This document shows positions 6,898 through 54,117 of a stretch of DNA of 64,000 nucleotides, piece after piece. The notes beneath the pieces are model-generated. The model had not been told where the DNA came from. It did not search any database and saw only the letters and a list, made by a program, of their open reading frames with translations. The position numbers and the translations under genes are program-made. This DNA comes from Elusimicrobiota bacterium (GTDB taxonomy: Bacteria > Elusimicrobiota > Endomicrobiia > Endomicrobiales > JAPLKN01): positions 35,046-99,045 of the forward strand of contig JBHPNE010000001.1 of assembly GCA_042562855.1 (NCBI GenBank), given 5' to 3'. The stretch's first letter is position 1. Every line of letters starts with the position of its first letter.

Positions 6898-7263
6898 ATG
6901 GAAGCAAAAAATATGGATAGACATTTTGTGGGTTTAGTAATGATGCTTGCATCAGCTGCATGGCAGCAGATGGGTAAAATAGCAAATCCTATGACAGGAA
7001 AAGTAGACAGAAATATGCCTCAGGTTCAAATGATGATAGAAACATTATCTATGCTTCAGAATAAAACCAAAGGCAATCTTTCTACAGATGAGCAGAAATC
7101 TCTGGAAAATGTAATCTCGGATTTGCAATTAAATTATGCTGATGAAGTAAAAAAAACAGACAAGCCCGCGGATAGTGCTCCATCTGCTGAAACCGGTAAA
7201 GTGGAAGAAAAGAAAGAAGATAGCAAAGACGAAAAAGAAGAGAAGAACAAACCCATAAATTAA
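6898..7263 (+). CDS. DUF1844 domain protein
   Basis: AGGAG RBS. The core FVGLVMMLASAAWQQMGKIANPMTGK ... LSMLQNKTKGNLS matches the DUF1844 pattern. The C-terminal tail is K/E-rich. Confidence 0.7.
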   Translation: MEAKNMDRHFVGLVMMLASAAWQQMGKIANPMTGKVDRNMPQVQMMIETLSMLQNKTKGNLSTDEQKSLENVISDLQLNYADEVKKTDKPADSAPSAETGKVEEKKEDSKDEKEEKNKPIN

Positions 7264-7266
7264 TGA

Positions 7267-7475
7267 TTGCCCGGTGGTGCCAGCCTGAGGCTGGTGCGCC
7301 TTTGGTGCATAATTGACCTTAAGGGATCTTTTTAATGTTTTTAGAAAAAATAGAAGCTATTTTTTTATTAGTTGCCCGGTGGTGCCAGCCTGAGGCTGGT
7401 GCGCCTTTGGCGCATAATTGACCTTATACGGTCTTTTTAATGTTTTTAGAAAAAATAGAAGCTATTTTTTATTAG
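7267..7475 (+). repeat. Tandem repeat of two units (7267-7371 and 7372-7475). Each begins with the first 13 nt of the adjacent tRNA-Gln and carries two GC-rich hairpins
   Basis: The units are near-identical by eye. Each starts TTGCCCGGTGGTG. This is followed by CCAGCC-TGA-GGCTGG and TGCGCC-TTT-GG(T/C)GCA, then an AT-rich tail containing TTGACC. A third copy of the 13-mer is the real tRNA 5' end. Confidence 0.85.
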
Positions 7476-7476
7476 T

Positions 7477-7549
7477 TGCCCGGTGGTGTAATTGGTAACA
7501 CGCCTGCCTCTGGAGCAGGAGTCTCCTGGTTCGAGCCCAGGCCGGGCAG
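7477..7549 (+). tRNA. tRNA-Gln (anticodon CUG)
   Basis: Hand-folded cloverleaf:
- acceptor TGCCCGG/CCGGGCA (U1:A72)
- D arm GTGT-AATTGGTA-ACAC
- anticodon arm CCTGC-CTCTGGA-GCAGG
- 5-nt variable loop
- T arm CCTGG-TTCGAGC-CCAGG
- discriminator G
CCA is not encoded. Confidence 0.9.
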
Positions 7550-16479: not shown

Positions 16480-16555
16480 CTACCGAGTTTAAAAAGCTCA
16501 GAATAATCGTTTCGGCATTAAATGCTTGAAAAGAGTAAAGCGGGAGAATTATTGT

Positions 16556-16759
16556 ATGGCAACAGGAAAAGTGAAGTGGTTTAATGATGCGAAAGGTTTT
16601 GGTTTCATTTCAAATGATGATGGTAGCGGTGATGTTTTCGCACATTTTTCAGCAGTAGAAGCTTCAGGTTTTAAAACTTTGGCTGAAGGTGATTCTGTAG
16701 AGTTTGAGGTAGAATCTTCAGACAAAGGCCCAAAGGCATCAAATATCAGAAAAGTATAA
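16556..16759 (+). CDS. Cold-shock protein (CspA family)
   Basis: The start was moved to the ATG at 16556. RNP-1 KGFGFI and RNP-2 VFAHF are present. 67 aa. Confidence 0.92.
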
Positions 16760-16787
16760 TTTTCTGTATTATAGTATTAAAGAACAA

Positions 16788-34900: not shown

Positions 34901-37662
34901 ACATCGTTCAGGCGCATGAATATTGGCGAATGAAAGGGCTTATGGTTGATCTTTTGATATGGAATGAGGATCATTCTGTGTATAGAGATCTCCTTAATGA
35001 TCAAATAGTTGGCTTGGTTACAGCAGGGATTGAATCTCAAACACTAAACAAGCCCGGCGGGATTTTTATACGACGGGCAGATCAGATGTCCAATGAGGAT
35101 AAGATACTCATGCAGACAGTTGCACGCATCGTTATTACTGACAGAGGAGGATCCTTAGAAGAGCAGTTAGAACGCAGAGGTCATTCAAAGCTGAATGTTT
35201 TGCCTTTCACTCCTACAAAAAGACAAGAAAAAGAAAAAGTTATTAATATTGAACCTAACAGAAAAGACTTGCTTTATTTTAATGGGTTTGGCGGGTTTTC
35301 AAAAAATGGCCGAGAATATGTAATTATAACCTCAAAAGATAGAGCTACACCTGCTCCATGGTCAAATGTTTTAGCTAATCCAAATTTTGGTACGGTAGTA
35401 TCGGAAAGTGGAGGAGCTTACACGTGGAGCGAAAATGCTCATGAATTCAGAATTACCCCATGGAAAAATGATTCCGTTACGGATTCAAGCGGTGAAGCAA
35501 TGTATGTTCGTGATGAGGAAACGGGAGATTATTGGTCTCCCACGCCCTTGCCAGCCCGCGGAAAAACGCCATACGTAAGTCGTCATGGGTTCGGTTACAG
35601 TATTTTTGAACACGCGCAAGAAGGAATAGAAACGGAATTAACGGTATATACTGCACTAGAGTCTCCTGTTAAGTTTGGAGTCTTAAGGATAAAAAATCGG
35701 TCTGGAAGAAAAAGAAAACTTTCGGCAACAGGTTATTACGAATTAATACTGGGCGACTTAAGGCAAAAAACACATATGCACATTGTTACAGAGCTTGACC
35801 CTAAAAGCGGAGCTCTCATTGCGTACAATCCTTATAACAAGGAATTCCACGGACGAGTGGCATTTCTGGATGTTAATGATAGTACAAGGAGCGTCAGCGG
35901 CGACAAAAAAGAATTTATTGGAAGAAACAGAACGCTTGCCAATCCTGAAATTATGCTGAGGGAACGTTTGTCAGGAAAAGTCGGAGCCGGTTCTGAGGCT
36001 TGTGCGGCAATGCAGGTTAAGTTTGACCTAATTGACAACGACGAAAGAGAGATAATATTTACTTTAGGCGCAGGCAAAAGTATAGATGAGGCAAAAAGCA
36101 TTATTCATAAATTTAAAGGTGCTGTTTCAGTACATAAAGAATTAGATAAAGTAATACATTATTGGGAACGTAGTCTTGGGGTATTACAGGTTGATACTCC
36201 TGACAAATCTGTGAATATTTTAGCAAATGGATGGCTGCAGTATCAGGCGTTAGCATGTCGTATTTGGGCAAGAAGCGGATACTATCAGTCCGGAGGCGCT
36301 TTTGGTTTTCGTGATCAACTACAGGATGCAATGTCTCTTGTTTATTCCGATCCCGGTATTTTAAAAAATATTTTAATAGATTTTGCACAACATCAATTTA
36401 TAGAAGGAGATGTGCAGCATTGGTGGCATCCGCCATCGGGAAGAGGGGTAAGAACCCATTGTTCTGACGATTATCTGTGGCTGGTTTTTGCTGCGTGTCA
36501 CTATGTAAAAACCTCAGGGGACAAAGGAATCTTAAATGAAATAATACCCTTTATTGAAGGACCGTTAGTTAAACCTGATACTGAATCCTATTTTGATATT
36601 CCTAAAAAATCCAGTGAAACGGGCACGCTTTATGAACATTGTGTTTTGGCAATTGAGCGGGCCTTAAAATTTGGTGAGCATGGATTGCCTCTTATGGGTC
36701 ATGGGGATTGGAATGACGGGATGAACCTTGTAGGTGCAAAAGGAAAGGGAGAAAGTGTTTGGCTTGCATTTTTCCTTTATAGTGTACTTATATCGTTTTC
36801 TGAAATATCTGAAATGCATGGTGATAAAGAGTTTTCGAAAACATGCTTAAATAAAGCAGAAAATTTGAAAGAAAATATTGAAAAAAATGCATGGGACGGC
36901 CAGTGGTATAAACGTGCGTATTTTGATAATGGTGATCCTTTGGGGTCTGCTTCAAATATGGAATGTCAGATTGACTCAATTCCTCAAAGCTGGTCAATAA
37001 TATCAAAAGCTGGAGATTTGCAACGGTCCAAACAAGCTATGGATTCAGTTGACAACCGTCTAGTTGATAGAAAAAATTCCTTAATCAAACTTTTCGACCC
37101 GGCATTTGATAAATCTGACCTTAACCCAGGCTATATTAAGGGCTATGTGCCGGGGGTTAGGGAAAATGGCGGACAGTATACTCATGCGGCTGTATGGGCT
37201 GTTATGGCTTTTGCTATTCTTGGTGATAGTGAAAAAGCGAGTGAACTACTATCTCTAATAAATCCAATAAACCATTCAACTGATGAAAACGGAATTAACA
37301 AATATAGAGTAGAACCATATGTTATGGCGGGGGATGTTTATGCTGTTTCGCCTAACGAAGGGCGGGGCGGTTGGACATGGTACAGTGGTTCTGCAGGATG
37401 GATGTATCAGTTGATAATCATGTACTTGTTAGGTATAAAAATAAGCGCAAATAAGCTGTATTTTGAGCCTTGCATTTCAAAAGACTGGAAATCTTATAAA
37501 ATACACTACAAATACAAAAATACTCTATACAATATTACAGTGACCAAAAATGCTAGTAATAAAAAAGATCACGTAGTTTTGGACGGTCACGCTCAGGATG
37601 AATCGTTTCTTACGCTAGTTAACGATAACAAAGAGCACACAGTTCAGATAAAGCTTATTTAA
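28903..37662 (+). CDS. cgs: Cyclic beta-1,2-glucan synthase (Cgs/ChvB/NdvB-like: GT84 domain plus GH94 phosphorylase-like domain)
   Basis: 2919 aa uninterrupted. There is an N-terminal TM region. The GT motifs are ITLDTDTQMPRD (DxD), SHDLLEG and RRYRWMRGDWQ. A second TM block follows. The C-terminal GH94-like region carries GHGDWNDGMN and ENGGQYTHAA. Confidence 0.85.
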   Translation: MKLFKNIKTRINKLLLSRKVSDEHPLRAELFNVDQLEQHAKMLAGRHEVTSKRVPEMLLPRLKNNEYILLKTRDFLESAGKAKRRISMAGEWLIDNFYLIEEQILLSQRHLPKGYSQELPHLVKGPLAGHPRVYEIASEIIAHGDGHIDEKGLLSFIKSYQTIAPLRLGELWAIPIMLRLALIENLRRVASRLTISQIDRNKADYWSNRMTEVFDKDANSLIVEIAAMAKADPPMSSTFVSEFVRRLHGLSSTLTLPLTWLEKKLAEKGQTVDQMLQLASQRQASDQVSISNSIASLRLLESADWRDFVEELSLVEQVLRKDPSGAYSGMDFATRDRYRHVIEAVATRSKLQEHVVASKVVQTAQNCMKDNGYNDRASHIGYHLIGGGFQRFAKLINIRLKFSEIMQTKGNTLSGILYFLPMLVINLFATAVIIVQGYAFGLRGPLLWIAAVLLLFATSQLAVSIVNWLVTMLIKPNDLPKMDFSKGIPPQFHTLIMIPTMLNNAKGVEELLEGLEVRYLANNDPSLHFGLLTDFIDAKQEKIPDDETLLNLAVSGVKRLNKKYAREAGEIFFLFHRPRLWNEQEKIWMGYERKRGKLSDLNMLLRGGGKEKFSKIVGDVSILQDVKYVITLDTDTQMPRDAAHQLIGTIAHPLNQAYYDEALQRVTKGYGILQPRVDVSYPGNKVSHFVRIFGGEPGIDPYTRAASDVYQDMFKEGSFIGKGLYDVDAFERSLDKRFPENLILSHDLLEGCYARSGLITDVQLYEAYPYSYIKDVSRRYRWMRGDWQIIKWLLFKVPGFDSKVYKNPISLISKWKIYDNLRRSIVSFSTSMLFILGWILFKPAWFWTLVVMGIVALPMFFMSMVPIVRKPKDLELKSHISSILGLLGKHLFQFMFIIGFVIYDAFFSLNAIISTIWRMFISKRRLLEWRTSGESSTPTSAFGFLRVMYISPSIAASILLFYYFGKLQIALAEQTLLCIWFLSPFFAWWLSKPISTKDVKLSGKQIIYLRNLSRKIWRFFETFVTADDNWLPPDNFQESPIKVVAHRTSPTNMGLALLSKLTAHDFGYISPGKLVNRLKKSLNSMGKLDRFRGHFYNWYNTQTLIPQQPLYVSTVDSGNLVGHLIVLRMGLIELIDKKIFSKTVFEGISDTLRLLYDNTNNILKSKEKNKDIQKVAEIINRIQNELKTEPESLTPFYAMLRRITLDVQEIIRVIPLKDSNELQWWAKALELQCYDYINDTAFIAPWIKISQPLSDIWTRGTDEQKEDLNRLREKLKELDYNPTLREISVLENDLLPLLDKVTSNIDASSDTEAESEKDWMINLKSIVKNASDHANERIIEIETIIKQCNEFSDIEYDFLYDKTSHLFYIGYNVNQRKTDASCYDLLASEARLCSFIAIAQGKIPQEHWFSLGRLLTKTAGDPVLISWGGSMFEYLMPLLVMPNYENTLLDRTYKAVIKTQKEYGKKRNVPWGVSESGYNIIDASMNYQYRSFGIPEIGFKRGLFEDIVIAPYASMMGLMVSPEESCENLEVMSDKGFEGIYGFYEAIDFTPSRVSSDESYSIVESFMAHHQGMSFLSLSYLLLNQPMQKRFLMDPMCKATELLLQERVPKTVPYLYDTEVTGILRSVEEKETLMRVFSNPNTAAPEVHLLTNGQYNVMVTNSGAGYSKWKNFSVSRWHEDSVQDKWGNFTYVRDVESGEFWSTAFQPTQTKSKYYEAIFSQSKAELRRKDHEIETYTEIVVSPEDDIEIRRTTVVNQSRTRRVIEFTSYAEVVIASQSEDDSHKSFSSLFIQTQIDFSKQAIICNRRPRSENEKMPWMLHLMAVHGETTEGATYETDRAKFIGRGKSLVRPFAMTDSDKLSNSEGSVLDPIVSIRCRVILEPDESATIDYITGVSETKQMASYLIDKYRDKNLADRVFDLAWTQAQIKLQQINATESDAQLYGRLASSLIYINASWRANANILKQNTRGQSDLWGYSISGDIPIVLLRIEDQANMDILRHIVQAHEYWRMKGLMVDLLIWNEDHSVYRDLLNDQIVGLVTAGIESQTLNKPGGIFIRRADQMSNEDKILMQTVARIVITDRGGSLEEQLERRGHSKLNVLPFTPTKRQEKEKVINIEPNRKDLLYFNGFGGFSKNGREYVIITSKDRATPAPWSNVLANPNFGTVVSESGGAYTWSENAHEFRITPWKNDSVTDSSGEAMYVRDEETGDYWSPTPLPARGKTPYVSRHGFGYSIFEHAQEGIETELTVYTALESPVKFGVLRIKNRSGRKRKLSATGYYELILGDLRQKTHMHIVTELDPKSGALIAYNPYNKEFHGRVAFLDVNDSTRSVSGDKKEFIGRNRTLANPEIMLRERLSGKVGAGSEACAAMQVKFDLIDNDEREIIFTLGAGKSIDEAKSIIHKFKGAVSVHKELDKVIHYWERSLGVLQVDTPDKSVNILANGWLQYQALACRIWARSGYYQSGGAFGFRDQLQDAMSLVYSDPGILKNILIDFAQHQFIEGDVQHWWHPPSGRGVRTHCSDDYLWLVFAACHYVKTSGDKGILNEIIPFIEGPLVKPDTESYFDIPKKSSETGTLYEHCVLAIERALKFGEHGLPLMGHGDWNDGMNLVGAKGKGESVWLAFFLYSVLISFSEISEMHGDKEFSKTCLNKAENLKENIEKNAWDGQWYKRAYFDNGDPLGSASNMECQIDSIPQSWSIISKAGDLQRSKQAMDSVDNRLVDRKNSLIKLFDPAFDKSDLNPGYIKGYVPGVRENGGQYTHAAVWAVMAFAILGDSEKASELLSLINPINHSTDENGINKYRVEPYVMAGDVYAVSPNEGRGGWTWYSGSAGWMYQLIIMYLLGIKISANKLYFEPCISKDWKSYKIHYKYKNTLYNITVTKNASNKKDHVVLDGHAQDESFLTLVNDNKEHTVQIKLI

Positions 37663-37900
37663 ACCGATTGAGAGGGGCACTAAGCCTAAGACGGAAAAGT
37701 AGAATCTGCCTGTAAAATCAAATCAATTTGACTTTAACCTATCTTAACCAATTTAAACCTATTTGAACCTCATATGGACACTTTTTGGACACCCCAGCCG
37801 TCGTCCTGTTTTAACATCCTTATAGTCATACCCCATAAGAATATGGGAGTTTCTTACCCTACCATGCTGTTTACTATTTCGGAACTTTTGCCAATTGGAG

Positions 37901-37929
37901 TTGACAAAAAATATTGTTTATGATAGACT
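37901..37929 (+). promoter_or_regulatory. Sigma70-type promoter inside module A
   Basis: Perfect -35 TTGACA (37901-37906), 17-nt spacer, TAGACT (37924-37929). The CCAATTGG palindrome ends 2 bp upstream of the -35. Confidence 0.5.
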
Positions 37930-37939
37930 TCTAACTAGA

Positions 37940-37984
37940 AGGACAAAGAGGTCCTCAAATCGCTGACGATTTGGGGACTTTTTT
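37940..37984 (+). terminator. Leader terminator with a competing upstream hairpin (attenuator candidate), module A
   Basis: The terminator is GTCCTCAAATCG-CTGA-CGATTTGGGGAC (12-bp stem, one G-U pair) followed by TTTTTT. The alternative hairpin AGGAC-AAAGAG-GTCCT uses the first 5 nt of the terminator stem. Confidence 0.6.
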
Positions 37985-38175
37985 ATTGTAAGTCTTGGCA
38001 AAGAAGCTTAGAAAGTTTTAAGACATGGAAGTCTTTGGTTCTAAAGTAAATTTAGAGCTGAGGGCTTTTTTTATTGGTCTTAAACACCAACGGTGGTAGC
38101 AAAGTATTTTAAAATTTTAAAGGAGAATGTCTCCCAAGGGACAAATCTCATCAAAAACACTCAAAGGAGATTTAG

Positions 38176-38904
38176 ATGAAAAAAAGAATTATGACATTAG
38201 TATTGATGTTAGTTTTTACAACAAGTCAGTTTGTTTATGCAAGTCCTTTGTTTTCCGGTTCTGAGGTGTCGGTTTCTGGGACATTGGACTATTTCTCTTC
38301 TTACATGTGGAGAGGTCAGACATTGGATACAGATCTGGTAGTGCAGCCGGGTTTTACAGTAGGTTGTAAAGATTTTAGTTTTGGATTTTGGAGCAGTATG
38401 CCGGTTTCCGACAAAGATTCTTCCGGTGCATCAAATGAAGTAGATATTACTGTTTCATACAGTAGGGATTTTGGAAAAGTCGGTATTTCACTCGGATATG
38501 TTTCCTATGAATTTCCTTCTACAGTTTTTTCCGGAACGGATGAGGTGTTTGCAGGATTTTCCTTAAATGAACTTCCCATATCTTTCGGAGTCACTTATTA
38601 TAATGACTACGATGACGCTGACGGATTAAAAGGTAGTTATACAGTAGTAGATTTGGGAAAAGATATTGGCAAGATTACAGAACTTCCAATAAGCGTGTCT
38701 TTGAGCATGGGCACGTATAGCGATTACGGAACATTCATGAACGGATCTGTAATTACAGTTGGATTAGGTTCGGAAGTAGAAATTTCCGAAAAAGTAACAA
38801 TGTCTCCATCGATCTATTATGTGTACACGTCAGGAGATTTATCAGAAGATTCTATCGGTAATCAGAAAGGTGGAGTATATGGCGGATTTAGTTTGGGATT
38901 CTAA
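38176..38904 (+). CDS. TorF/Gcw_chp-like outer membrane porin (family often found upstream of amtB)
   Basis: Signal peptide. SSYMWRGQTLD motif and beta-strand periodicity. The C-terminus ends in Phe (GFSLGF). Confidence 0.65.
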   Translation: MKKRIMTLVLMLVFTTSQFVYASPLFSGSEVSVSGTLDYFSSYMWRGQTLDTDLVVQPGFTVGCKDFSFGFWSSMPVSDKDSSGASNEVDITVSYSRDFGKVGISLGYVSYEFPSTVFSGTDEVFAGFSLNELPISFGVTYYNDYDDADGLKGSYTVVDLGKDIGKITELPISVSLSMGTYSDYGTFMNGSVITVGLGSEVEISEKVTMSPSIYYVYTSGDLSEDSIGNQKGGVYGGFSLGF

Positions 38905-38921
38905 AAAAGGAGGGTAAAAAA

Positions 38922-40148
38922 ATGAATTCAGGTGATACAGCTTTTATTCTGATATGTGCCGCTTTAGTATTGTTAATGACGCCGGGACTTGCTTTCTTCT
39001 ACGGTGGCATGGTCAGGAAGAAAAATGTTTTAGGTGTTTTAATGCAGTGTTTTGCGATAATGGGTGTTATGAGTTTGCAGTGGGTGCTGTTTGGTTACAG
39101 TTTGGCTTTTTCGGAAGGTAGCTGGTTTATCGGCGGGTTGCAGTGGATGGGGCTTAATGGTGTAGGGCTTGAACCGTATGCAAATTTTTCGGAAACTATA
39201 CCGCATCAGGCTTTTATGATATTTCAGGCGATGTTTGCGATCATAACACCGGCACTTATAATCGGTGCTTTTGCTGAAAGGATAAAGTTTTCTGGATTTA
39301 TAATCTTTTCATTGTTGTGGGCTACATTTGTTTATGATCCGGTTTGTCATTGGGTCTGGGGTCCTGGAGGATGGTTAGGACAGCTTGGTGCTTTGGACTT
39401 TGCCGGAGGAACTGTTGTTCATATTAATGCTGGGGTAGCAGCTTTAGTTATGGCGCTTTTCTTAGGGCGGAGAAAGGGTTATGAGAATAAGCCAATGCCT
39501 CCTCATAATTTGCCCTTCACGGCTTTAGGTGCTGGATTATTGTGGTTCGGATGGTTTGGATTCAATGCAGGAAGTGCTTTGGCTGCTGACGGCATAGCTG
39601 TGAATGCTTTTGTTGTTACAAATACAGCTGCAGCTGCTGCGGGTCTGACATGGGCTTTCCTTGAATGGATATTGAATGGAAAACCCACAATCTTCGGTAT
39701 TGTTACCGGCGCAGTAGCAGGGCTCGTTGCTATCACACCTGCCGCTGGTTTTGTCAGCGCATTATCAAGTATAGCTATAGGTGTTTTAGTCAGTGTAGTA
39801 TGCTTTGTAATGGTCAGTATGGTTAAACCAAAGTTGGGCTATGATGACTCGCTTGATGCTTTCGGAGTTCATGGAATAGGCGGAATGGTAGGAGCTATTG
39901 CTACGGGGCTGTTTGCTTCTGTAGCTGTAAATGCAGGTGGAGCAAATGGGTTGTTCTTTGGGAATTTCGAGCAGCTAAAAATTCAATTAATAGCTGTAGG
40001 AGCAACGACTCTGTATACTTTGGTAGTAACGGTAATACTGTATAAGGTTGTTGATCTAATGGTAGGAATGCGTGTTAGTGAAAAAGATGAGGCCTTAGGA
40101 TTAGATTTGGCTGAACATCATGAAGGCGCATATACTGTAATTGAATAA
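38922..40148 (+). CDS. amtB: Ammonium transporter
   Basis: [22 protein letters not shown] and [14 protein letters not shown] motifs. 11 TM segments. Confidence 0.95.
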
Positions 40149-40158
40149 GGAGGAAAAT

Positions 40159-40503
40159 ATGAAACTAATAATTGCAATAATTCAACCGTATAAGTTAGAA
40201 GAAGTTAAAAAGGAGCTTTATGCGAACGACATAAATCTTATTACTGTTACTGAAGTCCTTGGACACGGCAGACAAAAAGGTGTTACAGAAATTTATAGGG
40301 GCGTTAAGGAAACAGGTAATTTATTAAGAAAAGTGCGTTTAGATATAGCCGTTAACGATGAATATGTTGAGAAAGCGGTGTATTCTATTAGAAAAGGAGC
40401 AAAAACAGGTGAAAAGTTTGGCGATGGGAAAATATTCGTTCTCGACCTTAAGGAATGCATAAGAATAGGTTCGGGTGATACAGGTAAGAGAGCTATAGGT
40501 TAA
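40159..40503 (+). CDS. glnK: P-II nitrogen regulatory protein (GlnK type, amtB-linked)
   Basis: The start was moved to the ATG at 40159, which has an AAGGAGG RBS. The T-loop region is GHGRQKG. The B-loop-like segment is [11 protein letters not shown]. 114 aa. Confidence 0.9.
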
Positions 40504-40656
40504 CCAATCTCAACCTATTAGGATATAATATGGACACTTTTTGGACACCCCAGCCGTCGTCCTGTTTTAACATCCTTATAGTCATACCCCATAAGAATAT
40601 GGGAGTTTCTTACCCTACCATGCTGTTTACTATTTCGGAACTTTTGCCAATTGGAG

Positions 40657-40685
40657 TTGACAAAAAATATTGTTTATGATAAGCT
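40657..40685 (+). promoter_or_regulatory. Sigma70-type promoter inside module B
   Basis: TTGACA (40657-40662), 17-nt spacer, TAAGCT (40680-40685). Confidence 0.5.
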
Positions 40686-40695
40686 ATTAATTAGA

Positions 40696-40740
40696 AGGAC
40701 AAAGAGGTCCTCAAATCGCTGACGATTTGGGGACTTTTTT
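40696..40740 (+). terminator. Leader terminator with a competing upstream hairpin (attenuator candidate), module B
   Basis: Sequence identical to 37940-37984. Confidence 0.6.
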
Positions 40741-40876
40741 ATTTGTATTCTAAGCGAAGAAGCTTAAAAGGATCTAAGACATAGACGTCTTCGGTTTCTA
40801 AGATAGTTTTAGAAATTTTGAGGGCGTTTTTTCTTTGTGTGCTGGAAAGATAAGCAGAATAATTGGAGGGAAATTA

Positions 40877-42472
40877 ATGACAAAATATATTTTTGTAACT
40901 GGTGGTGTGGTATCTTCATTAGGAAAAGGAATTACTGCTGCTTCAATAGGCAGTCTATTTAAAAGTTGTGGATTAAGAATTAATATTATAAAGATTGATC
41001 CTTATCTGAATGTTGATCCAGGCACAATGAGTCCTTTCCAGCATGGCGAGGTATTTGTAACAGATGATGGAGCAGAAACAGATCTTGATTTAGGTTACTA
41101 TGAAAGGTTTCTTGATATAAACTTGTCGCAAGACAGTAATTTTACCAGCGGTAAAGTATATGAAACAATAATTTCAAGAGAAAGAGAAGGAGGTTATCTG
41201 GGAAATACTGTGCAGGTTATTCCTCATGTAACAAATGAAATAAAATCCAGAATAAAAAAAGCCTCAAGAGGCAACGATATTGTTATTGTTGAGATAGGAG
41301 GTACAACCGGCGATATAGAAGGCTTACCGTTTCTTGAAGCAATACGCCAAATGAGGCATGATGTAGGCCATGATAACGTGTGTTATGTCCATGTAACACT
41401 TGTTCCTTACATTAACGCTGCTCAGGAGATGAAAACAAAACCTACTCAACAGAGTGTTGCAAAACTCAGGGAAATAGGAATAGCTCCACACGTATTAGTA
41501 TGCAGGACAGAAAGGCGCATGACACCGGATATGAAGAAAAAAATAGCTTTGTTCTGCAATGTCCGTGAAGATGCAGTAATCGAGGAAAAAGATGTTGATA
41601 CGAGCATATATGAAGTTCCTGTTATGCTCAAAGATCAGGGTATGGATAAGTTGATAGTTGACATGCTTCATATTAATTGTAGAAAAAGTAATTCTAACAA
41701 TTGGAAAAAAGTTATTAAAAATATAAAGAGCTGCAAAAAAACAGTAAATATAGCGGTTGCCGGAAAATACACAGAATTAAAAGATTCATATAAGAGTATA
41801 TGGGAGGCTTTAACTCATGGTGCGTGGGCAAATAATGCTAAGATCAATATAAGTTATGTAGATGTGGAAAAAGATGATCTGAACGAAAAATTTTCAAAAG
41901 CTGATGGCATATTGGTTCCCGGAGGATTTGGGGACAGGGGTATTGAAGGAAAAATAAATGTTGTATGTTATGCAAGAGAGAATAAAATACCATTTTTCGG
42001 GATTTGCCTTGGGATGCAGTGTGTTGTAATTGAATTTGCAAGGAATGTATGCGGCTTAAAAAATGCAAATAGTACGGAGTTTAATGCTAAAACACCTTAT
42101 CCTGTTATTGATATAATGAAAGAACAAAAGAAAATATCAAACAAAGGCGGAACAATGAGGCTGGGTAAGTATCCATGCCAGTTAATAAAAGGCTCGCTGG
42201 CAAATAAAGCGTACAAAAAATCATTGATTTATGAGCGTCACAGGCACAGATATGAACTAAACAATAAGTTTAGAAAAAAACTTGAACAGTTCGGAATGGT
42301 CATTACCGGAAAATATGAAAATAAGAATCTGGCAGAGATAGTTGAACTAAAAAATCATCCATGGTTTATAGGAACTCAATTTCATCCTGAATTTAAATCA
42401 CGCCCGACAAGTCCACACCCACTTTTTAGTGATTTTATTAAATCGGCAATAGAAAATAAAAGTAGAAAATGA
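40877..42472 (+). CDS. pyrG: CTP synthase
   Basis: The start was moved to the ATG at 40877, which has a GGAGGG RBS. Motifs GGVVSSLGKGI, GICLGMQ and HRHRYE are present. Confidence 0.95.
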   Translation: MTKYIFVTGGVVSSLGKGITAASIGSLFKSCGLRINIIKIDPYLNVDPGTMSPFQHGEVFVTDDGAETDLDLGYYERFLDINLSQDSNFTSGKVYETIISREREGGYLGNTVQVIPHVTNEIKSRIKKASRGNDIVIVEIGGTTGDIEGLPFLEAIRQMRHDVGHDNVCYVHVTLVPYINAAQEMKTKPTQQSVAKLREIGIAPHVLVCRTERRMTPDMKKKIALFCNVREDAVIEEKDVDTSIYEVPVMLKDQGMDKLIVDMLHINCRKSNSNNWKKVIKNIKSCKKTVNIAVAGKYTELKDSYKSIWEALTHGAWANNAKINISYVDVEKDDLNEKFSKADGILVPGGFGDRGIEGKINVVCYARENKIPFFGICLGMQCVVIEFARNVCGLKNANSTEFNAKTPYPVIDIMKEQKKISNKGGTMRLGKYPCQLIKGSLANKAYKKSLIYERHRHRYELNNKFRKKLEQFGMVITGKYENKNLAEIVELKNHPWFIGTQFHPEFKSRPTSPHPLFSDFIKSAIENKSRK

Positions 42473-42512: not shown

Positions 42513-45179
42513 ATGGGAAAAGTTTATTCATTAATGAGTACCGGGCTTCCTGAGCTGGATAATGTAATTCAGAACGTAATGCCAGGCGATAATATTGTCT
42601 GGCAGATGGACTCTATTGAAGATTATATCCTTTTTGTACATCCATTCTTAAGCGATGCATACAAAAAAGGAAACAAGCTGATCTATTTCCGGTTTGCAGA
42701 GCACTCTTCATTGTTACCTGAAGGAGTTAACGCTGAAGTTTATACCCTTCACCCTGAAGATGGGTTTGAATCATTTATAGCAGAGATTTTTAATGTTATA
42801 GAAAAATATGGTACAGGTGTATTTTATGTTTTTGATTGTTTGTCAGAGCTTACAGTGGATTGGTATAGTGACCGAATGCTTGCTAATTTTTTTATGCTTA
42901 CCTGTCCCTATCTTTATGATTATGAAACTGTAACATATTTTGCTCTTCTAAGGAATCATCATACCTCGCAAACTATTAATGCCATACATAATACTGCTCA
43001 GGTGATTATAGATGTTTATCGTAATAAAAATGATTTGTTTTTGCAGCCACTCAAGGTTTATAAACGACATACTCCGACTATGTATATGCTTCATCACTGG
43101 AAAGATAGAGAGCTTAAACCTGAAACAAGTAGTACTATAATTTCAGAAATACTTGAAGAGGTATCACATCCCTGGCTTGATTTCTCTGTAAGCAGGCGGG
43201 ATATGTGGATCAGAGTATTTTCAAAAGCACGTGAGATTCATGAAACCATCTCTTCTTCAAAGTCACCTCAAGAAGGGTTGGATGAAGATATTGTCAAAAG
43301 CAAAAAGTTTGATAAGGAATATGAAAAGTATTTTCAACGTCTATTAAGAATGGCTGTAACAAGAGATGAACGAGTTATAAAATTGGCAGAAAAATATTTT
43401 GAACTTTCTGACCTTATAGATATTGGCAAACATATGATAGGAACCGGGCTCATAGGAGGTAAGACAGTAGGAATGCTTTTAGCCCGCGCTATTTTAAAAC
43501 GTTCCAATAAAAAGTACTGGCAAGAAAAATTGGAGCCGCATGACAGTTTTTATATTGGCTCAGATGTTTTTTATACATATTTAGTCCAGAGCGGCTGCTG
43601 GTGGCCACGGTGGAAACAGAGGCATGAAGACAATGTATTAGAAGGTGCTGAAGATGTGCGGCAAAGAATGCTTTCCGGTGATTTTTCGAGCGATATCAAA
43701 GATCAATTCGTGGAAATATTAAATTATTTTGGGCAGTCGCCAATTATTGTACGTTCCAGCAGTCTCTTAGAAGACGCATACGGAAACTCTTTTTCAGGAA
43801 AGTATGAGAGTGTGTTTTGTGCGAATCAGGGCACCCCGCAGGAACGGCTTGAGGGATTTATGAATGCTGTGCGCGCTGTTTATGCAAGCACTATGAACCG
43901 TGATGCATTGTTATATCGTGCTCAAAGAGGCCTTTTAGACCGTGATGAACAGATGGCACTTCTTGTTCAGCGGGTTTCAGGCTCTGTTTATAATGACACG
44001 TTCTTTCCTCAGATTGCAGGTGTAGGATTTTCATATAATCCGTTTGCGTGGAGCCAGGATATTGATCCTAAGGCCGGAGTGCTTCGTCTCGTCTTTGGAT
44101 TAGGGACAAGAGCAGTGAACCGCAGTGATGACGATTACACATGTATTGCAGCGCTAAACGAACCTAAGAAAAGGCCCTCAGCAAACATAGACGATGATAG
44201 AAAATATGCACAGAAAAAGATTGATATCTTAGACCTTAAGGCTAACCAGCTTGTATCAAGACACTTTGAGGATCTGGCAAAAAATATTTCCAAATTACAA
44301 CTTGATCTTTTTGCCATACGTGATAATGAGATGGAGAAAAGAGCCAAAGAAAGAAATATTCATGATATATTTTCATGGATCATTACATTTGACGGCCTTT
44401 TTTCTAATACAGAGTTTGCACAGGATATGCGTAGGATATTAAGAACAATTGAGGACGCTTATGAATATCCTGTTGATATTGAGTTTACATCCAATTTTTT
44501 AAGTAATGGACAATATAAGATTAATCTTTTGCAATGCCGCCCCTTTCAGGTAAAAAGAGGAACTTATATAGTAAGGGAACCTGGGAGGATACAGGAGAAG
44601 AATTTAATATTGAGAACAAAAGGCCCCATAATCGGCAATAGTGTGCAGATAGTAATTGACAGGTTGATTTATATTCTTCCTTCTATTTATGGACATATGT
44701 CCATGCCTGACCGCTATTCGATTGCACGGCTAATAGGAAAGTTGACTAATCTTGAAAATAAACAGGAGAAAAAAAACATTATGCTTATAGGGCCGGGCAG
44801 ATGGGGAACTACAACTCCTTCGCTCGGTGTTCCCGTTGAGTTTGGCGAGATAAATAATGTTTCGGTTCTATGCGAGATTACAGAAATGCATGAAGGCCTT
44901 GTCCCGGATGTTTCGCTTGGAACCCATTTCTTCAATGACATTGTAGAGTTGGATATGCTTTATATGGCCATTCATCCTGCGGGAAGTGATAACTTTATAA
45001 ATAAAAAGTTTTTGGAGACAGCACATAATCAATTGGAAAAGCTTCTTCCGGGTGAATCTAAATGGTCTAATGCTGTACGTATTATAGATTTGTCACAGGA
45101 ACAGCAGAGTAGTTGTATTTATTTAAATGTAAATTCCCCGGAGCAAAAGGGCGTTTGTTATATAGGTAAAAAAGAATGA
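42513..45179 (+). CDS. PEP/pyruvate-binding (PPDK_N ATP-grasp) domain protein with a degenerate KaiC/RecA-like N-terminal domain
   Basis: The central region (IVRSSSLLEDAYGNSFSGKYESV ... PVDIEF ... LLQCRP) matches the PPDK_N pattern. The N-terminus (STGLPELDNVI...PGDNIVWQ ... VFYVFDCLSEL) resembles KaiC-type ATPases but has no Walker A. I see no phosphohistidine swivel motif. Its stop overlaps the gltB start (ATGA). Confidence 0.75.
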   Translation: MGKVYSLMSTGLPELDNVIQNVMPGDNIVWQMDSIEDYILFVHPFLSDAYKKGNKLIYFRFAEHSSLLPEGVNAEVYTLHPEDGFESFIAEIFNVIEKYGTGVFYVFDCLSELTVDWYSDRMLANFFMLTCPYLYDYETVTYFALLRNHHTSQTINAIHNTAQVIIDVYRNKNDLFLQPLKVYKRHTPTMYMLHHWKDRELKPETSSTIISEILEEVSHPWLDFSVSRRDMWIRVFSKAREIHETISSSKSPQEGLDEDIVKSKKFDKEYEKYFQRLLRMAVTRDERVIKLAEKYFELSDLIDIGKHMIGTGLIGGKTVGMLLARAILKRSNKKYWQEKLEPHDSFYIGSDVFYTYLVQSGCWWPRWKQRHEDNVLEGAEDVRQRMLSGDFSSDIKDQFVEILNYFGQSPIIVRSSSLLEDAYGNSFSGKYESVFCANQGTPQERLEGFMNAVRAVYASTMNRDALLYRAQRGLLDRDEQMALLVQRVSGSVYNDTFFPQIAGVGFSYNPFAWSQDIDPKAGVLRLVFGLGTRAVNRSDDDYTCIAALNEPKKRPSANIDDDRKYAQKKIDILDLKANQLVSRHFEDLAKNISKLQLDLFAIRDNEMEKRAKERNIHDIFSWIITFDGLFSNTEFAQDMRRILRTIEDAYEYPVDIEFTSNFLSNGQYKINLLQCRPFQVKRGTYIVREPGRIQEKNLILRTKGPIIGNSVQIVIDRLIYILPSIYGHMSMPDRYSIARLIGKLTNLENKQEKKNIMLIGPGRWGTTTPSLGVPVEFGEINNVSVLCEITEMHEGLVPDVSLGTHFFNDIVELDMLYMAIHPAGSDNFINKKFLETAHNQLEKLLPGESKWSNAVRIIDLSQEQQSSCIYLNVNSPEQKGVCYIGKKE

Positions 45180-51203: not shown

Positions 51204-51320
51204 ATGAAAAGTGTTATAAAATACGAAGATGAAGTGAAAATATTGCGTGATATTACTCAAAGTATAAGTTGTACTTTAAATCTTGAGGAAGTTTTAAAAA
51301 AGATAGTAGTGGCGGTTTGA
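51204..51320 (+). pseudogene. 38-codon ORF resembling the start of a GAF-domain regulator (possible gene relic)
   Basis: MKSVIKYEDEVKILRDITQSISCTLNLEEVLKKIVVAV* resembles the first helix/strand of GAF domains and then stops. AGAGG lies 8 nt upstream. Confidence 0.25.
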
Positions 51321-51332
51321 TAAAGCAAAAAC

Positions 51333-51361
51333 TTGACAAGTTGGCAAATATTTGAGAAAAT
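51333..51361 (+). promoter_or_regulatory. Sigma70-type promoter candidate for the GSIII gene
   Basis: TTGACA (51333-51338), 17-nt spacer, GAAAAT (51356-51361). Confidence 0.35.
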
Positions 51362-51436
51362 GTCTTCGGAAAGACAAAGGTGTTTTTCCATGTATGACTG
51401 TGAGAGTCAAAATATTTTGTGAAAAGTAATCGCGAT

Positions 51437-51469
51437 GAAGCGTTCCGATAAAGGGCGTTTCTTTTTTTT
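51437..51469 (+). terminator. Terminator-like hairpin plus U-run inside the GSIII leader
   Basis: GAAGCG / CGTTTC stem (one G-U pair) with a 13-nt loop, followed by 8 T. It ends 33 nt upstream of the ATG at 51502. Confidence 0.35.
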
Positions 51470-53753: not shown

Positions 53754-53788
53754 GTTTAATTGTTCAAAAGCTATTGTTTAAGAGATTA

Positions 53789-53992
53789 TTATGCTTTCTT
53801 AATGTTAGTTGCTTTTGGACCTTTGTCTGAAGACTCAACTTCAAATGTAACTGAATCTCCTTCTGCTAAGCTTTTGTAGCCATCTCCTGTAATTGCAGAA
53901 TAATGTGCGAACACATCACCACTACCATCATCATTGGAAATGAATCCAAAACCCTTCGCATCGTTGAACCACTTCACTTTTCCTGTTGCCAT
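53789..53992 (-). CDS. Cold-shock protein (CspA family), paralog of 16556..16759
   Basis: The start was moved to the ATG at 53992. KGFGFI and VFAHY motifs are present. It shares about 85% of residues with the other copy. Confidence 0.92.
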
Positions 53993-54117
53993 GTAACACT
54001 TCACCTTCCTTTTCTCTTCACCCAGAATCGGGATAATTTTCGCGCCCACCAATCGTTGAAACCTGTTGCATTATAGCTAATTAATGACTAATAAGTCAAC
54101 CTATTTTCAAAAATAAT

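Follow-up and report, generated by a model that had tools for sequence, protein, structure and literature searches.

The window analysed here is a stretch of 64,000 nucleotides (nt) from an uncultured member of the Elusimicrobiota (contig JBHPNE010000001.1), in which a near-identical module of about 330 bp stands twice, each time in front of an operon for nitrogen assimilation. The first copy lies upstream of a gene for a porin-like protein, which is followed by amtB and glnK, while the second lies upstream of pyrG, the gene of a PPDK_N-domain protein, gltB and gltD, after which a type III glutamine synthetase is encoded. These gene assignments had been made in the original prediction, which was drawn from the sequence without database searches, and Pfam finds the corresponding Ammonium_transp, P-II, CTP synthase, PPDK_N, gltB and gltD products; the porin-like protein has no Pfam match, its homologues carrying the label TIGR02001/PF09694. 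The repeated module is real and is built of two unlike parts: a 154-nt segment, here called block B, and a regulatory leader, which makes up the 3' ~200 nt of the module and consists of a sigma-70 promoter followed by two predicted conditional terminators, T1 and T2. Each copy is best read, with a probability of about 0.7, as the promoter and 5' leader of a nitrogen-assimilation operon under protein-mediated antitermination of the ANTAR type. The parts of the two copies are listed below, where A1, G1 and G4 give the base at the first or fourth position of a hexaloop and P1 and P2 are the two hairpins of a T2 unit.

37744-37771, plus strand: copy 1, diverged 5' edge, 21/28 identical to 40500-40527, with phased TTAACC/TAAACC/TGAACC units
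37772-37925, plus strand: copy 1, block B, identical to 40528-40681, situated 5' of the promoter and overlapping it
37901-37929, plus strand: copy 1, sigma-70-type promoter, TTGACA, 17-nt spacer with TG, TAGACT, 10/12 consensus match
37940-37955, plus strand: copy 1, predicted T1 hexaloop hairpin, AGGAC-AAAGAG-GUCCU (A1, G4), its 3' arm being the base of terminator T1
37945-37984, plus strand: copy 1, predicted terminator T1, 18-bp stem and U-tract, -23.5 kcal/mol
37997-38008, plus strand: copy 1, predicted P1 hairpin of the T2 unit, GGC-AAAGAA-GCU (A1, G4), weak at -1.6 kcal/mol
38020-38035, plus strand: copy 1, predicted P2 hairpin of the T2 unit, AAGAC-AUGGAA-GUCUU (A1, G4), 11 nt after P1
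38027-38072, plus strand: copy 1, predicted terminator T2, stem 38027-38069 with apex UCUAAA/UUUAGA, U-tract 38066-38072
40500-40527, plus strand: copy 2, diverged 5' edge, beginning at the glnK stop codon (TAA, 40501-40503)
40528-40681, plus strand: copy 2, block B, with an open reading frame (ORF) at 40530-40679 preceded by AGGA
40657-40685, plus strand: copy 2, promoter, TTGACA-17-TAAGCT with TG extension, absent from the scan list and read by eye
40696-40740, plus strand: copy 2, predicted T1 unit, hexaloop hairpin 40696-40711 and terminator 40701-40740, identical to copy 1
40752-40765, plus strand: copy 2, predicted P1 hairpin of the T2 unit, AAGC-GAAGAA-GCUU (G1, G4), 5 bp when read as UAAGC/GCUUA
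40776-40791, plus strand: copy 2, predicted P2 hairpin of the T2 unit, AAGAC-AUAGAC-GUCUU (A1, G4)
40785-40832, plus strand: copy 2, predicted terminator T2, 45 nt before pyrG (40877)

A repeat search returns a single family in the window, 37744-38043 and 40500-40799, with 90% identity over 300 nt and an offset of 2756. Neither BLASTN nor whole-window repeat searches find a third copy of the module in the window, and a 22-mer taken from block B occurs there exactly twice against 0 expected. The pattern of identity given in the original prediction was reproduced by a base-by-base count: 37772-37925 and 40528-40681 agree at 154/154 positions, the next 11 nt (37926-37936) at 6/11 with differences at 37926, 37927, 37930, 37931 and 37935, and 37937-37987 at 51/51, the longest exact run here being 37936-37987. 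The ungapped tail that follows (37988-38036) is identical between the copies at 35/49 positions, or ~71%, and upstream of 37744 similarity drops to 7/28. The 26 mismatches among 293 ungapped positions all fall outside a set of 206 (~5e-9 by our estimate of chance at a uniform rate), so that divergence along the repeat is far from uniform.

The placement of the -10/start region over the cluster of mismatches agrees with a consensus promoter scan, and all five differences fall within -10 positions 3-4 and the discriminator. Transcription from copy 1 is predicted to start at about 37936-37938. Since the second exact block, 37936-37987, extends from this predicted start to the end of the T1 U-tract, it is precisely the predicted short T1 RNA. 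Two candidates were rejected: a sigma-54 promoter inside block B, whose GG-to-GC spacing is wrong when inspected by eye, and, for copy 2, attenuation by reiterative transcription of the pyrG type, as the predicted start has no G-run.

The terminator folds reach z-scores between -5.8 and -6.3. When the hexaloop hairpin is enforced in T1, the energy rises from -23.5 to -13.0 kcal/mol and the U-tract stays unpaired; for the hairpins enforced in T1 and T2 the U-tracts are unpaired at a cost of 6-10 kcal/mol. An alternative reading of the T1 apex, CUCAAAUC-GCUGAC-GAUUUGGG, has a G4 hexaloop. The hairpins AAGAC/GTCTT and TCTAAA/TTTAGA, which had been noticed in the diverged tail, are real and correspond to hexaloop hairpin P2 and to the apex of terminator T2, respectively, T2 of copy 1 ending 104 nt before the start of the porin-like gene (38176). 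That stems are kept in this tail while loops drift is borne out by the base stem of T2, in which copy 2 preserves the pairing of copy 1 through one double change, from A-U to C-G, and several wobble substitutions. A scanner for hexaloop hairpins joined to terminators finds six matches in the window, five of which lie inside the two modules.

ANTAR-target RNAs are defined by two stem-loops of at least 3 bp with A1/G4 hexaloops and by a terminator overlapping the 3' hairpin; the P1-P2 linker of eut leaders measures 5-12 nt, and the targets, of which one transcription unit can contain several, sit 5' of genes for P-II, ammonium transporters and glutamate/glutamine synthases (Ramesh et al. 2012, PMC3369931). 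According to later structural work, one hexaloop is the smallest unit that ANTAR proteins bind (PMC8934654), and the action of GnfR on the glnK/amtB leaders of Geobacter has been shown experimentally (PMC2995071). Two stem-loops are present in the T2 units, with 3 bp and 5 bp and a linker of 11 nt in copy 1, and with UAAGC/GCUUA and AAGAC/GUCUU and a linker of ~10 nt in copy 2. The loops AAAGAG (T1), AAAGAA and AUGGAA (T2 unit of copy 1) and AUAGAC (P2 of copy 2) are A1/G4 hexaloops; those that deviate from A1 are GAAGAA (P1 of copy 2) and GCUGAC (T1 apex), and G4 is common to all loops of these units, both in the window and in four of the loci introduced below (L081, L091, L141, L145). The 3' arms GUCC(U) and GUCUU are predicted to form the base of T1 and T2, the 3' arm of P2 in copy 1 being the 5' base of its T2, so that hairpin and terminator would exclude each other. 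The location in leaders of nitrogen genes is seen in the window itself, in the enrichment at independently chosen loci and in metagenome matches 5' of amtB, glnK and glnN.

The shared control region of nitrogen-assimilation operons that had been postulated is supported. The module had been said to belong to no named riboswitch or small RNA (sRNA) family, which agrees with an Rfam scan: at gathering thresholds the whole window yields two tRNAs only, and at E<=10 the region 37600-41000 yields sub-threshold chance matches only (ctRNA_p42d on the T1 hairpin with 17-20 bits against a threshold of 50, and gCoV-3UTR with 23 against 176).

Among known systems, the eut leaders controlled by EutV in Enterococcus faecalis (PMC3369931) share the A1/G4 hexaloop hairpins, have a 3' hairpin that is exclusive with an intrinsic terminator, as is predicted here, and have a linker range into which the 10-11 nt of the window fall. 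The setting next to P-II, amt and glutamate or glutamine synthase genes and the presence of several attenuators per regulon are likewise those of ANTAR targets (PMC3369931). The window differs from the eut system in its phylum, Elusimicrobiota, in its likely regulator, a GAF-ANTAR protein and not a response-regulator ANTAR protein, in having a promoter-proximal T1 with one canonical hexaloop that abuts the apex without a linker, and in that some loops are G1. In Geobacter sulfurreducens, the ANTAR protein of the GnfK/GnfR system relieves premature termination in ammonium-assimilation and nitrogen-fixation leaders (glnK, amtB and nif), to which the window may be likened by analogy, and in both a conserved loop-containing sequence overlaps the terminator; Geobacter uses RpoN promoters and a REC-ANTAR regulator, whereas the window has sigma-70 promoters and two tandem terminators (PMC2995071). 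The regulon of Desulfotomaculum acetoxidans, with 13 attenuators in six transcription units, resembles the window in having more than one ANTAR-type attenuator per unit and in covering glutamate synthase, P-II and amt genes; it is a bioinformatic prediction only, and a near-identical duplicated leader is not described there (PMC3369931). ANTAR targets on nitrogen genes have thus been known since 2012, and they are not described for Elusimicrobiota in the literature covered here. Less ordinary, and unproven, are the promoter-proximal single-hexaloop T1, a possible trans role of the short RNA and the orphan block B.

Relatives, metagenomes and a candidate regulator

The loci retrieved for comparison, 157 in all, are referred to by L numbers. 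The AmtB of the window has its best match among GTDB species representatives at 71% identity, with no close relative there, and relatives were located via the porin-like protein at 57-61% identity. In L081, TTGACA-17-TATAAT is followed by T1 and then by AAGAC-CACGAA-GUCUU and T2, upstream of porin-amtB-glnK; its T1 is 86% identical to that of the window, with one A-U to G-C change and otherwise wobble or loop changes. The same promoter-T1-T2 arrangement occurs in L091 and L141, and canonical dual hexaloops (GGAC-AUGGAA-GUCC and GGC-AAAGAA-GCC) precede the porin gene in L083 and L087. In L156, the nearest pyrG relative at 85% nt identity, a different gene lies upstream of pyrG and no such module is found there, which implies that the copy before pyrG is specific to this lineage. 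The conservation upstream of orthologous operons by which the original prediction was to be judged is therefore partial: it holds for T1 and T2 before porin-amtB-glnK in L081, L091 and L141, but not for block B, which is conserved nowhere, nor for pyrG of L156.

A degenerate pattern derived from T1 and scanned over JGI metagenomes gave 65 loci, at least 14 of which lie directly upstream of amtB, glnK or glnN. The whole design of promoter, single-hexaloop terminator and second hexaloop-terminator unit is present in L091, L141/L114, L126, L130, L144 and L145/L131/L137, and the distance from promoter to hairpin (-38 to -49) is the same in L091, L114, L126, L130, L131, L144 and L145. Where a pattern locus has no promoter next to it, another hexaloop hairpin usually lies just 5', as in the classical arrangement. 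Across 14 T1-type sequences, 93.5% of the cells of the T1 stem pair and 17 cells carry double changes, with a covariation score in the unconstrained part of the stem that was reached by 0/500 shuffles. At loci chosen by AmtB or porin homology only, the scanner found 13 matches no more than 500 nt 5' of nitrogen-gene starts where ~2.6 were expected, and the element is 6-fold enriched upstream of such starts over the expectation from its overall density. A covariance model of the T1 alignment, which scores copy 1 at 58.7 bits, has extra matches in these homology-chosen loci beside amtB or a GAF-ANTAR gene (L002, L041) and between both (L004).

Of the AmtB proteins found, that of L145 is the closest (76% identical); in this locus, a gene for a GAF+ANTAR protein of 232 amino acids (aa; Pfam ANTAR 1.1e-20) ends ~30 nt before the promoter-T1-T2-amtB leader. 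Homologues of this protein are encoded beside the motif in L137, L131, L139, L129, L102 and L142 and near amtB in L004, L041 and L065. At E<=1e-30 the family has >6,800 members, and Elusimicrobiota and Omnitrophota account for many of those that are named. No GAF-ANTAR protein had been characterised as of 2012 (Ramesh et al., PMC3369931), and a literature search found no occurrence of the term "GAF-ANTAR". The description of the element as uncharacterised has to be given up, as its transcribed part fits the published definition of ANTAR targets (PMC3369931) and relatives encode GAF-ANTAR proteins beside the same leader.

Some of these loci have further features of their own. A gene for a GAF-sigma54-activator precedes porin-amtB-glnK in L083 (6987-9950) and L087 (7016-9930), which also encode a 378-386-aa protein with the Sigma54 DNA-binding domain only; next comes a conserved TTCGCAYGCKGATTGCA, which is like a -24/-12 promoter with CG for GG, and the canonical dual ANTAR hexaloops follow. 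This suggests two layers of control in these loci, as against the sigma-70 promoter in the window. In L081 (9314-9868), and also in L091 and L141, the T1-T2 leader is separated from the porin gene by a small gene resembling GerE/sigma-70 region 4, which is absent from the window; in L081 this gene is followed by another hexaloop hairpin and terminator (GGGAC-AUAGAU-GUCCC). In L156 (5654-8607), a fragment of a P-II gene stands inverted upstream of a GATase-pyrG pair, beside fragments of an IS66 transposase; the amtB-glnK/pyrG junction is rearranged in this locus.

Proposed mechanism and the role of T1

The mechanism that follows is one we infer at every step. Transcription would start ~7 nt after the near-consensus sigma-70 promoter, the first ~50 nt of the RNA folding into T1 and a further ~90 nt into T2. 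In each unit, the strand at the bottom of the terminator stem would alternatively serve as the 3' arm of a small hexaloop hairpin. An ANTAR-domain regulator, by analogy with the relatives a GAF-ANTAR protein of ~232 aa that would sense nitrogen status, most likely binds and stabilises the nascent hexaloop hairpins. With the hairpins held, the terminators would remain incomplete and transcription would read through into porin-amtB-glnK from copy 1 or pyrG-PPDK_N-gltB-gltD from copy 2; without the regulator, short RNAs of ~50 nt and ~140 nt would result. T1 probably also terminates the transcript of the operon upstream.

Several observations weigh against this model. The scanner gives 2.1 +/- 1.5 chance matches per shuffled window, which makes the motif alone weak evidence and leaves the case to rest on the comparative data. 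In these, the metagenome pattern had fixed the GGAC/GUCC stem, the conservation of which is consequently not independent evidence; for this reason three tests independent of the pattern were run, namely covariation, the scanner on loci chosen by homology and the covariance model. T1 departs from the classical definition of two hairpins with a linker, in that its 5-bp hairpin abuts the apex of the terminator and its second loop is either a tetraloop, in the minimum-free-energy fold, or a GnnGnn hexaloop with zero linker. In the T2 units, the P1 loop of copy 2 opens with G instead of A and the P1 stem of copy 1 has just 3 bp. A tblastn search found no ANTAR gene in the 64-kb window. As to the history considered in the next section, five mismatches in 11 nt between two perfect blocks are unexplained by a single conversion tract; the differences in -10 and discriminator may have arisen by one complex mutation or may reflect selection for promoters of different strength.

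It is unlikely, but the alternative with most to be said for it, that T1 is a free-standing sRNA gene present in two copies, whose abundant ~50-nt RNA would work in trans, perhaps by sequestering the ANTAR regulator in the manner of EutX/Rli55 for EutV, with only T2 as a cis attenuator. The coincidence of the exact block 37936-37987 with the whole predicted short RNA would suit such a gene, as would the recurrence, in six lineages or more, of a promoter that abuts a single-hexaloop terminator, with a further unit downstream in every case. A single hexaloop is enough for ANTAR binding, and EutX provides a precedent for a short hexaloop RNA with its own terminator, which the terminated T1 product could resemble (PMC8934654). 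EutX has a gene of its own under the control of a B12 riboswitch, whereas T1 stands in cis, directly 5' of the regulated operon. As T1 is in line with T2 and the operon, any read-through must cross T1, so that a cis role is unavoidable; no separate T2 promoter is evident, and in the predicted fold of the terminated RNA the 5' hexaloop hairpin melts into the stem and only the apex loop is displayed. If the T1 RNA did act in trans, it would represent a promoter-proximal single-hexaloop variant of ANTAR control that recurs in several phyla.

Block B and the history of the duplication

The two leaders are inferred to be old paralogues because their T2 units are only ~71% identical and differ by compensatory changes, while the 5' ~206 nt, comprising block B, the -35 element and T1, appear to have been homogenised recently by gene conversion or copying, the -10 and discriminator alone being left different or held so by selection. 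Perfect non-coding identity had been ascribed to recent copying, gene conversion or unusually strong constraint, with the diverged csp paralogues of the window as a yardstick. These form an inverted repeat (16543-16765 and 53783-54005) that is 78% complementary, which confirms the marked divergence of ordinary paralogues in this genome. Of the three explanations, copying and conversion stand. Constraint does not, since T1 differs by 14% between relatives, where block B is absent, and so cannot account for 100% identity. For block B, recent gene conversion or copying is the best explanation. It is improbable that the ~50-nt T1 RNA, as the product of two identical genes titrating the GAF-ANTAR protein in trans, and block B, as a lineage-specific control element or micro-protein gene, are separate units kept identical by concerted evolution, with selection keeping only the -10 and discriminator different. 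If they were, the differing -10 and discriminator would allow the two operons to be expressed at different levels.

Block B itself is orphan DNA devoid of a detectable signal of function. Its main features are a stop-free ORF of 49 codons (37774-37923 in copy 1), a direct repeat TGGACAC-N4-TGGACAC (37775-37792) and a palindrome CCCATAAGAATATGGG (37832-37847). The repeat has an 11-bp phase, the exact block exceeds the frame, from ATG to TGA, by 2 nt on either side, the chance of a stop-free frame is ~0.026 per frame, and in copy 2 AGGA stands 6 nt before the ATG. All of this would fit a block that is functional in its own right, as an activator-binding region for a nitrogen factor or as the gene of a 49-aa protein, and that owes its identity to selection. 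Such a function is nevertheless distinctly improbable. Six-peptide back-translated scans found the peptides of block B neither in 185,579 species genomes nor in JGI metagenomes, and HMMER against 1.84 billion representative proteins gave only four marginal matches (E 5e-5 to 8e-4), which are internal stretches of large repetitive-looking proteins. The ORF has no Pfam match and no coding sequence in the NCBI annotation, and of the two copies only the second has a Shine-Dalgarno sequence. A first codon-usage test was positive, but the signal vanished against a stop-free null, 15-31% of such sequences equalling the codon score. With no credible homologues, no Pfam match and an ordinary codon score, a conserved protein or pseudogene was rejected. 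RNA structure shows no excess over shuffles, with z of +0.67 and +0.11 on the two strands, and a structured RNA was rejected. The sub-motifs have no other occurrence in the window, the glnN promoter included, and were discarded as recurring operator sites. No relative has the block 5' of its version of the leader, none of the 157 loci contains it, and selection cannot hold 154 nt invariant while the conserved T1 tolerates 14% change.

A mobile or viral origin of block B was rejected too, as plasmid, phage and viral collections held no match beyond one viral 19-mer that did not extend and is attributed to chance. It is very unlikely that the module is an assembly artefact or a generic repeat, dispersed or mobile (a MITE-like element or promoter cassette), in either case without a specific link to nitrogen: the genome is metagenome-assembled, the perfect repeat exceeds typical assembler k-mers and block B, as is common for mobile or orphan DNA, has homologues nowhere, but there are just two copies in 64 kb, both before nitrogen operons, with no terminal inverted repeats (none of >=20 nt flank the module), no genome or metagenome matches to add to those collections, T1 and T2 at the orthologous position in relatives, and compensatory changes between the tails that an artefact would not be expected to produce.

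The glnN leader and the meaning of the module

A third leader of related design lies upstream of glnN, the gene of the type III glutamine synthetase (51333-51469, plus strand), and is non-homologous to the duplicated module. Its promoter is TTGACA-17-GAAAAT, and its predicted hairpins have G4 hexaloops, AAGAC-AAAGGU-GUUUU (51371-51386) and CGC-GAUGAA-GCG (51431-51442), the latter overlapping a terminator at 51437-51469. It looks like a third ANTAR-like leader that has no sequence homology to the other two. In L110, the leader of glnN has dual hexaloops that are clearer than those of the window.

An ORF of 38 aa (51204-51320, MKSVIKYEDEVKILRDITQSISCTLNLEEVLKKIVVAV*) ends 12 nt before the -35 element of the glnN promoter. 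It matches the N-terminal part of a profile of six GAF-ANTAR proteins (22.3 bits, single-target p 2.4e-9); Pfam GAF gives no match and BLASTP no alignment. It may be what is left of a truncated or deleted GAF-regulator gene, in a position like that of the GAF-ANTAR gene of L145.

The PPDK_N (phosphoenolpyruvate/pyruvate-binding) protein of 888 aa is encoded between pyrG and gltB (42513-45179), its stop codon overlapping the gltB start. A homologue with 56% identity is encoded directly before the glnN leader of L110, which indicates that the PPDK_N protein travels with nitrogen-assimilation genes in this lineage. Elsewhere in the window, two tandem units of 105 nt that are 92% identical (7260-7469) stand immediately 5' of a tRNA (7477-7549), and each opens with TTGCCCGGTGGTG, which is also how this tRNA reads at its 5' end. 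The units could be partial tRNA duplications, such as old integration scars.

The module is not a new class of element, and recent gene conversion has most likely produced the identity over 154 nt as a side effect. The design of promoter, single-hexaloop terminator and dual-hexaloop terminator recurs across lineages and offers a clean substrate for the question of whether a single hexaloop suffices for co-transcriptional antitermination, with the very large family of ~232-aa GAF-ANTAR proteins pointed to as the likely regulators. For this uncultured Elusimicrobiota bacterium, a regulatory model emerges in which constitutive promoters would be gated by ANTAR-type antitermination. This may coordinate ammonium uptake by amtB-glnK with glutamate synthase and CTP synthase, and, via the third, non-homologous leader, with glutamine synthetase III.

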